From the NCBI RefSeq assembly GCF_044647545.1, contig NZ_CP172818.1: a DNA stretch of 64,000 nt; one strand, given 5' to 3'. A program made the position numbers and the translations under genes. Of this stretch, positions 5,658 to 36,750 are shown in pieces (positions within the stretch are counted from its first letter, which is position 1; each line of letters opens with the position of its first letter). Under the pieces are notes generated by a model. It did no database searches. It saw only the letters and a list, made by a program, of their open reading frames with translations, and had not been told where the DNA came from. This DNA is from Escherichia coli (GTDB taxonomy: Bacteria; Pseudomonadota; Gammaproteobacteria; Enterobacterales; Enterobacteriaceae).

Positions 5658-6833
5658 ATGGATACGTCACTGGCTGAGGAAGTACAGCAGACCATGGCAA
5701 CACTTGCGCCCAATCGCTTTTTCTTTATGTCGCCGTACCGCAGTTTTACGACGTCAGGATGTTTCGCCCGCTTCGATGAACCGGCTGTGAACGGGGATTC
5801 GCCCGACAGTCCCTTCCAGCAAAAACTCGCCGCGCTGTTTGCCGATGCCAAAGCGCAGGGCATCAAAAATCCGGTGATGGTCGGGGCGATTCCCTTCGAT
5901 CCACGTCAGCCTTCGTCGCTGTATATTCCCGAATCCTGGCAGTCGTTCTCCCGTCAGGAAAAACAAGCTTCCGCACGCCGTTTCACCCGCAGCCAGTCGC
6001 TGAACGTGGTGGAACGTCAGGCCATTCCGGAACAAGCCACGTTTGAACAGATGGTTGCCCGTGCTGCCGCACTTACCGCCACGCCGCAGGTCGACAAAGT
6101 GGTGTTGTCACGGTTGATTGATATCACCACTGACGCCGCCATTGATAGTGGCGTATTGCTGGAACGGTTGATTGCGCAAAACCCGGTTAGTTACAACTTC
6201 CATGTTCCGTTGGCTGATGGTGGCGTTCTGCTGGGGGCCAGCCCGGAACTGCTGCTACGTAAAGACGGCGAGCGTTTTAGCTCCATTCCGTTAGCCGGTT
6301 CCGCGCGTCGTCAGCCGGATGAAGTGCTCGATCGCGAAGCGGGTAATCGTCTGCTGGCGTCAGAAAAAGATCGCCATGAACATGAACTGGTGACTCAGGC
6401 GATGAAAGAGGTACTGCGCGAACGCAGTAGTGAGTTACACGTTCCTTCCTCTCCACAACTGATCACCACGCCGACGCTGTGGCATCTCGCAACGCCCTTT
6501 GAAGGTAAAGCGAATTTGCAAGAAAACGCACTGACTCTGGCCTGTCTGCTGCATCCGACCCCCGCGTTGAGCGGTTTCCCGCATCAGGCCGCGACTCAGG
6601 TTATTGCTGAACTGGAGCCGTTCGACCGCGAACTGTTTGGCGGCATTGTGGGTTGGTGTGACAGCGAAGGTAACGGCGAATGGGTTGTGACCATCCGCTG
6701 CGCGAAGCTGCGGGAAAATCAGGTGCGTCTGTTTGCCGGAGCGGGGATTGTGCCTGCGTCGTCACCGTTGGGTGAGTGGCGCGAAACGGGCGTCAAACTT
6801 TCTACCATGTTGAACGTTTTTGGATTGCATTAA
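5658..6833 (+). CDS. entC: Isochorismate synthase
   Basis: 391 aa from ATG at 5658 (ORF-track GTG at 5646 is an extension); first gene of entCEBAH operon; Fur-box-like sequence upstream. Confidence 0.93.
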
Positions 6834-22478: not shown

Positions 22479-22699
22479 AAGCATTCTCTCCTTGTTTTTG
22501 CATGTTATAAAGAACTAAAGCGTTGTTCAAGGTATAGCACTGCAGCACACAATAATTGCTGCTATGAATATATAAATATGCAGTGATATCGAGAGCTTCG
22601 CTCATATGAGGTTATTCCGCAGATGAATAACCAGTTCAGATTAGAATGCTGCAGCATAAGAGAAAAATGATAAATCTGGATAAATTGATATTTGAGCGG

Positions 22700-33782: not shown

Positions 33783-35168
33783 TTACTTGCCTGTGACCGC
33801 GGCTGCCGTTCCTGGCACCATCAGCTCTGTAGCAACGATAACAATCACCAGCCCAACAAGCACCGGTACCGAGGTGCGTTTTACGACTTCAAATGGTGAG
33901 ATTTTCGCCATCCCGGCAACCGCAACGACTACGCCAGAAACGGGTGACAGGGTACGACCGAGGTTTGACGCCTGCAGCATTGGGATAGTCAAATACGCCG
34001 GGTTAATGCCGGAAGAGTGCGCCAGTTTCGGGATCATCTCAACAAACGCATAAAACGGCGCATTGCCTGAACCGGTCGTGACTGCCGCCAGCATTGTCAG
34101 GATCACTAATACCAGCATCAGGATGATACTCGCCGAACCAAACGAGGTGGCGATAGAAATCAGACTTTGAATAAAGCCGATGGTGCTAAGCCCCTGAGCG
34201 AATACCCCAGCGGCAACCAGCAGCATCACCACGTTAGCAAACGCATCGGCCATCCCGCGATAAGCCACTTCCAGACCAGAGAAAACTTTCTGGGTATTAA
34301 AGCTGCGGATGAACTCCAGAATGGAGGCAATCAGCATACAAATCACCAGAATAGTGATGATGTGTAATTGCGGACCCCATTTGCCGTCAAAAATCAGCAC
34401 TCCGATGATCGGCGTGAACGGCAAAATGGCATAAAACGCAGGAGCAGTAGTGGTGATTTCACTGACATCTAACATTTCATGAGAGATATGCTCTTTTTTA
34501 TCCAGATAACGTTGCCAGAAGAAGTGGGCGATCGCCATGCCGATAATTGCAGCAATTGAGATAGGCAGCGTCGTTTTGAAGGCGAAGTCAATCAGCGACA
34601 TTTCGGAAGCCTGCGCCGCCAGCACCACATCCCCTGAAGTCGGTGCGAGAATAATCGCCGCCGGGGAGGCACAAATAGCAGCAGCTGCACCACGGCTGAT
34701 ACCAACGTTTACCATCACCGGAAACAGGGTTGCCATCAGCAAAACACCCAGACCGGTTGCGGAAGAGACGGCCAGAGACATCAGACAGGCGACAAAATAG
34801 GCGGCAATCATCAGCAGGTAAGGGGAGTTAATATACTGCAATGGTTTTGACGCCAGCTTGACCACCATATCATTCGCGCCGATATGGGTCATGTAAGCGG
34901 CAAAGCCACACAGCATCATAATCATCATGCCGAGGTCGCCGCCGCGGCTCATTAGCAATATTTTAACGTATTCAACGATATCCGTGGCGCTGTAGCCTGT
35001 TGAAGCCTGGCTGGACGGTAACACTTTGTGCCCCATAATGGCACTGATAATCAGCAATAACAGGCCACCGACAAATAACACGCCAGTGGCGGAATACCCT
35101 TTAATGATGTAGCGAGCTACACCCACAATAACCATAACCCCAATAAGGAGTTCAATGAATGTCAGCAT
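33783..35168 (-). CDS. dcuC: Anaerobic C4-dicarboxylate transporter
   Basis: 461 aa polytopic membrane protein; intact, no insertion. Confidence 0.93.
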   Translation of the reverse strand: MLTFIELLIGVMVIVGVARYIIKGYSATGVLFVGGLLLLIISAIMGHKVLPSSQASTGYSATDIVEYVKILLMSRGGDLGMMIMMLCGFAAYMTHIGANDMVVKLASKPLQYINSPYLLMIAAYFVACLMSLAVSSATGLGVLLMATLFPVMVNVGISRGAAAAICASPAAIILAPTSGDVVLAAQASEMSLIDFAFKTTLPISIAAIIGMAIAHFFWQRYLDKKEHISHEMLDVSEITTTAPAFYAILPFTPIIGVLIFDGKWGPQLHIITILVICMLIASILEFIRSFNTQKVFSGLEVAYRGMADAFANVVMLLVAAGVFAQGLSTIGFIQSLISIATSFGSASIILMLVLVILTMLAAVTTGSGNAPFYAFVEMIPKLAHSSGINPAYLTIPMLQASNLGRTLSPVSGVVVAVAGMAKISPFEVVKRTSVPVLVGLVIVIVATELMVPGTAAAVTGK

Positions 35169-35756
35169 AATTTTTCCTGTCTCCAGGCCCCAAAGTAAAT
35201 AATAAAAAATTCCTAAAAATTAAGGAAAAAATATGCCCAATAAATTGGCGGTGAATGCTGATTAAAATCAAGAAAAACTGCCATTAAGACATTGAAGTTG
35301 CTGTTTTTATACGTAGATAACAAAACGCATATTTAGCGGTTGGCAAATATCACATAATAATGTGTGTAAATTGATGGTGGATTGATGCAAATTTGTTAAT
35401 TGCAATGGTGTTAGCTGCGGCCATGCGCTCAAAAAATAATCTAATATGAGCATGGGTTGACGATATATATTATATACTTCGTTAAGATGATTGTTGTATC
35501 TCGTTAAAAAATAAAATAATTTTTCCTTGATTGCATTTTGTCATCAAAAAAGACTTGGTTTTTCTTTTTTGACTATTCCCATCGCAGAAAACGACGCATC
35601 ATCTTTAATCGATGCGCGGAAATATTTAACTTAAACAAGCGGAAATAAATAGAGCAGCTATTCAGATTATTTTTTATGTTGGGGCTATTAAGGTTATGTT
35701 AATTGTAGCTTTGCTATGCTAGTAGTAGATTTTTGATAAATGTTTAATGGTCACAA

Positions 35757-36317
35757 ATGAACGTGAGTAAATATGTCGCTATATTTTTCTTTGTTTTTAT
35801 TCAGTTAATCAGTGTTGGTAAAGTTTTTGCTAACGCTGATGAGTGGATGACAACGTTTAGAGAAAATATTGCACAAACCTGGCAACAGCCAGAACATTAT
35901 GATTTATATATTCCTGCCATCACCTGGCATGCGCGTTTTGCCTATGACAAAGAAAAAACCGATCGCTATAACGAGCGACCGTGGGGCGGCGGTTTTGGTC
36001 AGTCGCGTTGGGATGAAAAAGGAAACTGGCATGGCCTGTATGCCATGGCATTTAAGGACTCGTGGAACAAATGGGAACCGATTGCCGGATACGGATGGGA
36101 AAGTACCTGGCGACCGCTGGCGGATGAAAATTTTCATTTAGGCCTGGGATTTACCGCTGGCGTAACGGCGCGCGATAACTGGAATTACATCCCTCTTCCG
36201 GTTCTACTGCCATTGGCCTCTGTGGGGTATGGCCCCGCGACGTTTCAGATGACCTACATTCCGGGTACCTACAACAATGGCAATGTGTACTTTGCCTGGA
36301 TGCGCTTTCAGTTTTGA
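35757..36317 (+). CDS. pagP: Lipid A palmitoyltransferase (outer-membrane beta-barrel)
   Basis: 186 aa; signal peptide [25 protein letters not shown]. Confidence 0.93.
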
Positions 36318-36491
36318 GACAAATGAAGTTTTAGTAAATTCTTTAAAATCAACCACTAAAATAATTAACATCAAAAATAACGCGACTTTTATCACTTTTT
36401 AGTAAAGTTGCACTGGACAAAGCGTACCACAATTGGTGTACTGGTAACCGACACAGCATTTGTGTCTATTTTTCATGTAAAGGTAATTTTG

Positions 36492-36701
36492 ATGTCTAAG
36501 ATTAAAGGTAACGTTAAGTGGTTTAATGAGTCCAAAGGATTCGGTTTCATTACTCCGGAAGACGGCAGCAAAGACGTGTTCGTACACTTCTCTGCAATCC
36601 AGACTAATGGTTTTAAAACTCTTGCTGAAGGTCAGCGCGTAGAGTTCGAAATCACTAACGGTGCCAAAGGCCCTTCTGCTGCAAACGTAATCGCTCTGTA
36701 A
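36492..36701 (+). CDS. cspE: Cold-shock-domain protein
   Basis: 69 aa from ATG at 36492; RNP1 motif KGFGFI; ORF-track start 36408 is an extension. Confidence 0.95.
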
Positions 36702-36718
36702 GATACGTCAGCAAGAAT

Positions 36719-36750
36719 TCAAAACCCGCTTAATCAGCGGGTTTTTTTTG
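36719..36750. terminator. Bidirectional intrinsic terminator between convergent cspE and crcB
   Basis: aaaacccgct taat cagcgggtttttttt: A-tract, GC stem, T-tract. Confidence 0.8.

Follow-up and report, generated by a model that had tools for sequence, protein, structure and literature searches.

The dcuC–pagP intergenic region of Escherichia coli: most probably a divergent promoter region with a drifting AT-rich spacer and without a gene of its own

Introduction

In the window analysed here, a stretch of 64,000 nucleotides of Escherichia coli DNA (contig NZ_CP172818.1, assembly GCF_044647545.1), the genes dcuC and pagP are transcribed away from each other and are separated by a long, AT-rich intergenic region. 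An earlier interpretation, made from the letters and the open reading frames only (the sequence-only reading), took this gap for an H-NS-bound promoter region with several inputs. It expected pagP to be under PhoPQ/EvgAS-type control, and held that the length of the gap leaves room for an unannotated small RNA or small protein. Does the gap carry a gene of its own, or do the promoters of its two neighbours account for it?

Results

Size and composition of the gap

The gap measured 588 bp and was, as the sequence-only reading had it, the longest in the window, followed by citC-dpiB (379 bp) and dsbG-ahpC (371 bp). The ranking was based on gaps between annotated genes, for which PGAP genes were mapped onto the window from the closest genome. 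The G + C content was 31.3%, compared with 51.0% for the window, and no other 588-bp stretch of the window was lower; only 0.14% of the 588-bp windows had a G + C content as low as this. The many A/T runs that had been remarked on were real: we counted 14 homopolymer A/T runs of at least five bases, against 7.0 ± 1.9 in dinucleotide shuffles. Mononucleotide shuffles had 3.6 such runs, and 14 runs were reached by 0 of 500 shuffles. The short palindromes (6-bp arms, spacer of at most 12) were at chance level, with six in the gap and 5.3 ± 3.2 in shuffles, and this part of the description does not hold. The largest ORF inside the gap had 48 aa, in agreement with the statement that none of at least 60 aa is present. 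The features of the gap are collected in Table 1.

Table 1 Features of the dcuC–pagP gap and of its flanking genes. Positions are those of the window; a dot marks features without a strand. Divergence is the mean pairwise divergence within E. coli.
Feature	Position	Strand	Basis or remark	Divergence
dcuC	33783–35168	−	start codon ATG at 35168	0.070 (four-fold degenerate sites)
dcuC–pagP intergenic region	35169–35756	.	genes divergent	
dcuC-proximal segment	35169–35275			0.018
Three A-tracts (A6, A5, A6), 11-bp phasing	35204–35231	.	enclose inverted repeat TTCCTAAAAATTAAGGAA	
Inverted repeat TTCCTAAAAATTAAGGAA	35210–35227	.	at the predicted dcuC start	
Predicted dcuC −10 hexamer CATATT	35235–35230	−	spacing to FNR box; within cross-genus block AATGTGCCnAATAAA	
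FNR box CTGATTAAAATCAA	35258–35271	.	motif scan, 9/10 consensus positions (TTGAT-N4-ATCAA); activates dcuC	
Constrained upstream block	35276–35420	.	compare 0.07–0.11 at four-fold sites	0.027
Escherichia-specific spacer core (centre)	35421–35610	.	not alignable in Citrobacter, Salmonella, Klebsiella	0.130
Inverted repeat ACGCATCA-N8-CGATGCGC	35594–35617	.	scored terminator-like on − strand	
Invariant island TAATCGATGCGCGGAAATATTTAA	35605–35628	.	eight E. coli haplotypes; not conserved outside E. coli	
Segment between centre and PhoP box	35611–35685			0.045
pagP-proximal segment	35686–35756			0.031
PhoP box TATTAAggttaTGTTAA = TATTAA-ggtta-TGTTAA	35686–35702	+	pagP promoter; motif scan, conservation	
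Predicted pagP −10 hexamer TATGCT	35715–35720	+	12 nt downstream of PhoP box	
pagP	35757–36317	+		0.114 (four-fold degenerate sites)

The gap was 100% identical to that of E. coli FDAARGOS_497 and 97.8% identical to that of K-12, without indels. No feature is annotated inside it in K-12 MG1655, and no PGAP feature was found there in the 20 genomes listed out of 5,381 matching E. coli genomes. From 22685 onward the window was near-identical to FDAARGOS_497 (2 SNPs). Upstream of this point (1–22684) the positional comparison broke at indels at ~22640–22685, and the mapped CDSs were at least 96.6% identical. Because the match differs up- and downstream of 22685, the window strain is a different mosaic.

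The dcuC-side promoter

The half of the gap next to dcuC, which the sequence-only reading had left out, is an FNR-activated promoter. The FNR box was kept in all genera aligned. The same 14-mer lies at U00096.2 655,281, under an FNR ChIP-seq peak (PMC3688515 Table S6); coordinates of U00096.2 were converted to those of the window by subtracting 620,023, and the conversion was checked on this 14-mer (655,281 = 35258). In the same study, dcuC was placed in category 1, directly FNR-activated, and its expression was ~20-fold higher anaerobically (PMC3688515). The FNR ChIP signal on the dcuC site was the same in an hns stpA mutant (PMC3688515).

An anaerobic sigma-70 ChIP-seq peak at 655,235 corresponds to position 35212 of the window, and the known dcuC start site lies outside the peak region (PMC3688515). 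The −10-like hexamer CATATT lies at the right distance from the box for FNR class II spacing, and the sigma-70 peak is close by. From this spacing, dcuC transcription would start at ~35223, with a 5′ UTR of ~55 nt and the FNR box at −41.5. Compared with the published FNR-activated dcuC promoter (Zientz 1999, cited in PMC3688515), the 14-bp FNR box is identical and has the same position as in K-12; its placement at −41.5 is what we infer in the present analysis.

At the predicted start, phased A-tracts enclose an inverted repeat. Polymorphism in TTCCTAAAAATTAAGGAA among E. coli strains was confined to two central bases, 35218–35219, and the inverted repeat was not conserved in E. whittamii. It matches 13 of the 16 positions of what we take to be the EvgA box (TTCYTACA-N2-TGTARGAA).

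Upstream of the FNR box, the block at 35276–35420 was less divergent than four-fold sites within E. coli (Table 1), and also against E. whittamii (0.28, compared with 0.42 at four-fold sites). Part of it, TTGATGCAAATTTGTTAAT, was partly common to Citrobacter. Within Escherichia, the block is therefore under purifying selection, and it probably carries more regulatory sites of dcuC. For dcuC/crcA, an upstream ArcA site has been predicted, but no ChIP peak goes with it (Park et al. 2013, PMC3798270).

The pagP-side promoter

On the pagP side, TATTAAggttaTGTTAA fits the direct repeat (T/G)GTTTA-N5-(T/G)GTTTA at 9 of 12 positions. It takes the place of a −35 element, the box ending at 35702 and TATGCT starting at 35715. 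The input from EvgAS, which had also been expected here, is said to act through PhoPQ. Transcription of pagP would start at ~35727, with a predicted 5′ UTR of ~30 nt. The PhoP site of crcA lies 32 bp from the start site (Harari et al. 2010, PMC2908699), and this distance fits the predicted pagP start. The PhoP-dependent transcription of pagP is published (PMC2908699, PMC4147861), and both PhoP and EvgA are positive regulators of pagP (PMC4147861). The expected PhoP control of pagP is thus supported by the conserved box upstream of the −10 hexamer and by the earlier work on this promoter (PMC2908699).

A deletion of hns derepresses pagP, raising pagP-lacZ, and SlyA counteracts the repression (Chalabaev et al. 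2014, PMC4147861). SlyA is required for the induction of pagP in biofilm, and three SlyA-like sites were described; this induction is PhoP-independent and SlyA-dependent (PMC4147861).

The pagP promoter also responded to oxygen. A sigma-70 ChIP-seq peak at 655,742, position 35719 of the window, had a signal of 37 in aerobic and of 366 in anaerobic growth (PMC3688515 Tables S1, S2), and crcA mRNA was ~3.4-fold higher anaerobically (PMC3688515). Sigma-70 occupancy thus increased about tenfold, yet the FNR box is ~450 bp distant.

The K-12 pagP (crcA) promoter (PMC2908699, PMC4147861) occupies the same locus, with an identical PhoP box and −10 hexamer and the same flanking genes. It differs from the window only by strain-level substitutions, and the window joins a K-12-like gap to a B2-like pagP allele. 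The Salmonella pagP promoter (architecture IV, two PhoP boxes; PMC3335776) has an orthologous divergent dcuC-pagP layout and has the GTTAAG...ATTnA core and the −10 in common with the window. However, the Salmonella gap has 391 bp and is without the Escherichia centre, and the footprinted box lies one helical turn further upstream, 43–44 bp from the start site instead of 32 bp.

Occupancy by H-NS and other proteins

Anaerobic H-NS ChIP-chip regions were reported at 654,590–655,558 and 655,584–656,283, which are positions 34567–35535 and 35561–36260 of the window (PMC3688515 Table S3). Together, the two regions span the entire gap and reach into dcuC and pagP. Table S6 of the same study lists the FNR site as free of NAP overlap, whereas the H-NS region of Table S3 covers this site (PMC3688515). 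In vitro, RpoD holoenzyme and H-NS both bound the spacer in gSELEX (Shimada et al. 2014, PMC3946193). The view of the gap as an H-NS-bound promoter region with several inputs is therefore backed by ChIP-chip (PMC3688515), gSELEX (PMC3946193) and the effect of the hns deletion (PMC4147861). With 31% G + C and 14 A/T runs, the gap is DNA of the H-NS type, AT-rich and A-tract-rich.

In the part of the peak tables covered here, the anaerobic sigma-70 peaks at 655,235 and 655,742 were consecutive, one at each predicted promoter, with none between them (PMC3688515). These peaks were recorded in anaerobic growth in glucose minimal medium, and any promoter that H-NS silences during such growth would escape them. 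No IHF ChIP-chip entry was found over the gap (K-12 coordinate prefixes 6550–6558). Consensus scans of the gap for CRP, IHF, NarL, CpxR, RcsB, SlyA and ArcA yielded no more than the weak matches that AT-rich DNA usually gives.

A gSELEX peak of RpoN/NtrC has been assigned to the dcuC/pagP spacer (PMC8743547). We rejected a sigma-54 promoter in the gap, where the motif scan gave no good match. Within pagP, at 35815–35831, there is a sense-oriented sigma-54 binding site, TTGGTAAAGTTTTTGCT (PMC4591121), and this intragenic site probably accounts for the RpoN/NtrC peak.

Conservation across the Enterobacteriaceae

A scan for PagP, with one genome per species, gave 80 Enterobacteriaceae loci. Within the DNA fetched, dcuC lay divergent beside pagP, with a start that could be placed, in 44 of the 80. 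The gap length varied between 284 and 1,015 bp across lineages and is therefore not conserved. It was 284–293 bp in Klebsiella and Raoultella, 391 bp in Salmonella arizonae, ~410–465 bp in Citrobacter and 558–588 bp in Escherichia, and reached up to 1,015 bp in some Enterobacter/Kosakonia, which had foreign fragments in the gap.

In the alignment, only two cross-genus footprints were recognized, the FNR-box block and the PhoP-box/−10 block. The dcuC-side footprint consisted of AATGTGCCnAATAAA and GCTGATTAAAATCAAGAAA, the second of which holds the FNR box. Upstream of pagP, the columns conserved to at least 90% in the 80 species included GTTAAG-N5-ATTnA together with some of the −10 positions (TA...T). 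Equally conserved were a TGG upstream of the pagP start and a GTG shortly after the annotated ATG. This GTG, at 35763–35765, lies six bases past the ATG, whose own column was not conserved to this level. From the alignment, the annotated pagP start may differ between genera.

The 1,015-bp gap of Kosakonia oryziphila contained an ORF (278–667) with an AcrB/AcrD/AcrF-family fragment (PF00873, E 9e-17, profile 776–861). Evidently, the debris gathered at the dcuC-pagP site differs from lineage to lineage.

The hypervariable centre

Among E. coli haplotypes, of which first five and then eight were compared, the ends of the gap were well conserved and the centre was hypervariable (Table 1). Against E. 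whittamii, the divergence of the centre was ~0.5, essentially unalignable, with 0.42 at four-fold sites. Of 5,376 genomes, 1,685 had a version of the central 190 bp with only 80–90% identity to the window. With the four-fold-site rate taken as the neutral benchmark, these figures indicate that the centre evolves at this rate or slightly above it.

A segment restricted to Escherichia could also be a decayed gene or the remnant of a mobile element, and not a simple spacer. The centre is without counterpart in Citrobacter, Salmonella and Klebsiella, and other lineages have gained foreign fragments at this place, as the AcrB-family pseudogene piece of Kosakonia illustrates. In some E. coli, IS1 and IS3 have inserted at the gap. 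Strain 873.10 had IS3-family and IS1B insertions within the gap, and strain MINF_8D had an IS1-associated deletion of dpiBA-dcuC plus ~440 bp of the gap (~three quarters of its length). The gap tolerates IS insertions. The centre itself was single-copy in E. coli, had no phage or genuine plasmid match (the matches in the plasmid collection were chromosome-sized records), and showed no protein similarity to ORFs from the longer gaps found in other genera. We noticed no terminal repeats. The G + C content of the centre is close to that which AT-biased mutation would be expected to give in E. coli DNA free of constraint, and we counted this against a remnant as well. A decayed gene or element at this place is most improbable, and we regard the centre as a spacer.

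In and beside the centre, three islands (35454–35469, 35572–35594 and 35605–35628) were near-invariant, with at most one variable column each among eight haplotypes. The first contains ACGATATATA, which resembles what we take to be the H-NS nucleation motif TCGATATATT. At the third, GCGGAAATA was found at 35616 and recurred 24 bp downstream, at 35640. The third island is a candidate protein-binding site.

The stretch from dcuC to pagP (33783–36317) was a recombination mosaic. The centre of the gap was K-12-like (0.016), and the four-fold sites of pagP were 0.169 from K-12 and 0.051 from the B2 strain F11. The K-12-like centre next to an F11-like pagP indicates a breakpoint between the spacer and pagP.

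Small RNAs

The sole hint of a separate transcript in the gap comes from Shigella flexneri 2a 301, in which the predicted small RNA Ssr31 was placed between pagP and dcuC, from 694,274 to 693,980 (295 nt; PMC4782007 Table 1). Its intergenic region corresponds to the gap, its strand is that of pagP, and it was scored positive by RT-PCR (PMC4782007). An offset taken from Ssr5, in the dacA/ybeD gap, would put it at ~35447–35741 of the window. The gSELEX authors proposed a promoter, TTAAGA-17-TAAAAA, at 35482–35510 (PMC3946193). On this reading, an independent small RNA would be transcribed on the pagP strand.

Ssr31 was one of 57 predictions of a promoter/terminator scan. Its RT-PCR was reported without a described strand-specific design, and no Northern blot or RACE was reported with it (PMC4782007). 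Any signal could be read-through into pagP. In the window, the 3′ end of such an RNA would overlap the −10 and the start of pagP, where the only hairpin had −5.8 kcal/mol (z +0.5), and our scan found no intrinsic terminator on the + strand. Between the anaerobic sigma-70 ChIP-seq peaks at 35212 and 35719 there is no further one, and the putative body of Ssr31 falls on the part of the gap that diverges as fast as four-fold sites. No Rfam match and no K-12 annotation correspond to it, and the portion of the term-seq supplements of PMC7815308 covered here has no pagP/dcuC entry. Thus, the prediction and the RT-PCR product were not joined in the window by a terminator, by conservation or by a sigma-70 peak, and an independent Ssr31-like RNA is very unlikely.

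The scans of the gap as a whole gave a similar result. The promoter consensus scan found two sites, against 3.7 in shuffles. The single site inside the gap, ATGACA-17-AATTAT at 35544–35516 (−), has lost its −10 in O157 and was treated as fortuitous. The terminator scan gave no terminator-like site on the + strand and one weak site on the − strand, at 35617–35594. The inverted repeat at this site folds with ~−10 kcal/mol on either strand (z −1.6 on the − strand, −2.5 on the + strand). As an RNA element it was rejected, since only its left arm varies among eight haplotypes, with two changes that break the pairing and none that is compensatory. Sliding-window folding of both strands gave z values between −1.8 and +2.0, the sole exception being the window over the FNR palindrome. 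With a permissive Rfam threshold, up to E = 10, nothing in the gap rose beyond noise. Neither a promoter with its own Rho-independent terminator nor conservation of sequence or structure above background was found in the gap.

The one genuine Rfam match lay outside the gap, where the cspA thermoregulator model matched the 5′ UTR and gene of cspE at 36301–36749 (136 bits, E 2e-36). A clear intrinsic terminator at ~36721–36749 ends this match.

Small proteins

ORFs of 10–48 codons were present on both strands of the gap, and a small protein could in principle be encoded by one of them, for example by the 48-aa ATG ORF at 35307–35453 (−) or by the 35–36-aa ORFs at 35527–35648 (+). We tracked all gap ORFs of at least 10 codons across strains. 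In the variable part, starts were lost, stops gained or frames shifted, and ribosome-binding sites were missing. The 48-aa ORF had no Shine-Dalgarno sequence; its start codon was lost in O157, and F11 had a frameshift and internal stops. The 35–36-aa ORFs started with TTG, also had no Shine-Dalgarno sequence, and gained stops or many non-synonymous changes. Those ORFs that stayed intact sit in conserved promoter DNA, and their frame was not kept in other genera. In no case were a start codon, a ribosome-binding site and a frame kept among strains found together. The four longest gap ORFs had no Pfam or NCBIfam match, and neither the K-12 annotation nor the 20 PGAP genomes listed have a small protein in the gap. 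That the gap encodes a small protein is hardly credible.

The proposal that the gap has room for an unannotated small RNA or small protein thus found no support, whether from annotation, a conserved frame, a family match or significant structure.

Discussion

The gap is very probably the shared regulatory region of the divergent genes dcuC and pagP, without a gene of its own. This reading draws on two motifs and their conservation, on the occupancy by FNR, sigma-70 and H-NS, and on the genetic control by H-NS, SlyA and PhoP, from the sequence and from published data. The sequence-only reading was right on H-NS and PhoP; its idea of a small RNA or small protein was not supported.

We propose that the region works as follows. 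In the dcuC-proximal ~110 bp, FNR bound at its box would recruit RNA polymerase under anaerobiosis. The next ~145 bp, upstream of the dcuC promoter and constrained within Escherichia, probably provide additional dcuC inputs. At the other end, in the pagP-proximal ~75 bp, phospho-PhoP at its box would activate pagP from TATGCT at low Mg2+, with the box replacing the −35. The ~190 bp between the promoters would be an AT-rich spacer, specific to the lineage, that drifts about as fast as four-fold sites. H-NS, which coats the gap because it is AT-rich and A-tract-rich, would polymerise over this DNA and damp pagP until SlyA or phospho-PhoP counteracts it. The centre would thereby contribute composition and distance, and not a specific sequence.

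One extension of this scheme would give the spacer more to do. The spacer may hold a second pagP promoter, silenced by H-NS and located upstream of the PhoP-dependent one, from which a long leader or an Ssr31-like transcript would arise. We consider this unlikely. Such a promoter could explain the PhoP-independent, SlyA-dependent induction of pagP in biofilm (PMC4147861), and the three near-invariant islands would then be its control sites.

The region is an ordinary divergent promoter region, already characterised. On the preferred reading, two known promoters and an unconstrained, H-NS-coated spacer fully explain the longest and most AT-rich gap of the window. As it is explained without a hidden gene, length and AT-richness alone weakly predict hidden genes. 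The relevance beyond annotation is small. A second pagP promoter, if true, would refine how the palmitoylation of lipid A is switched on in biofilms.
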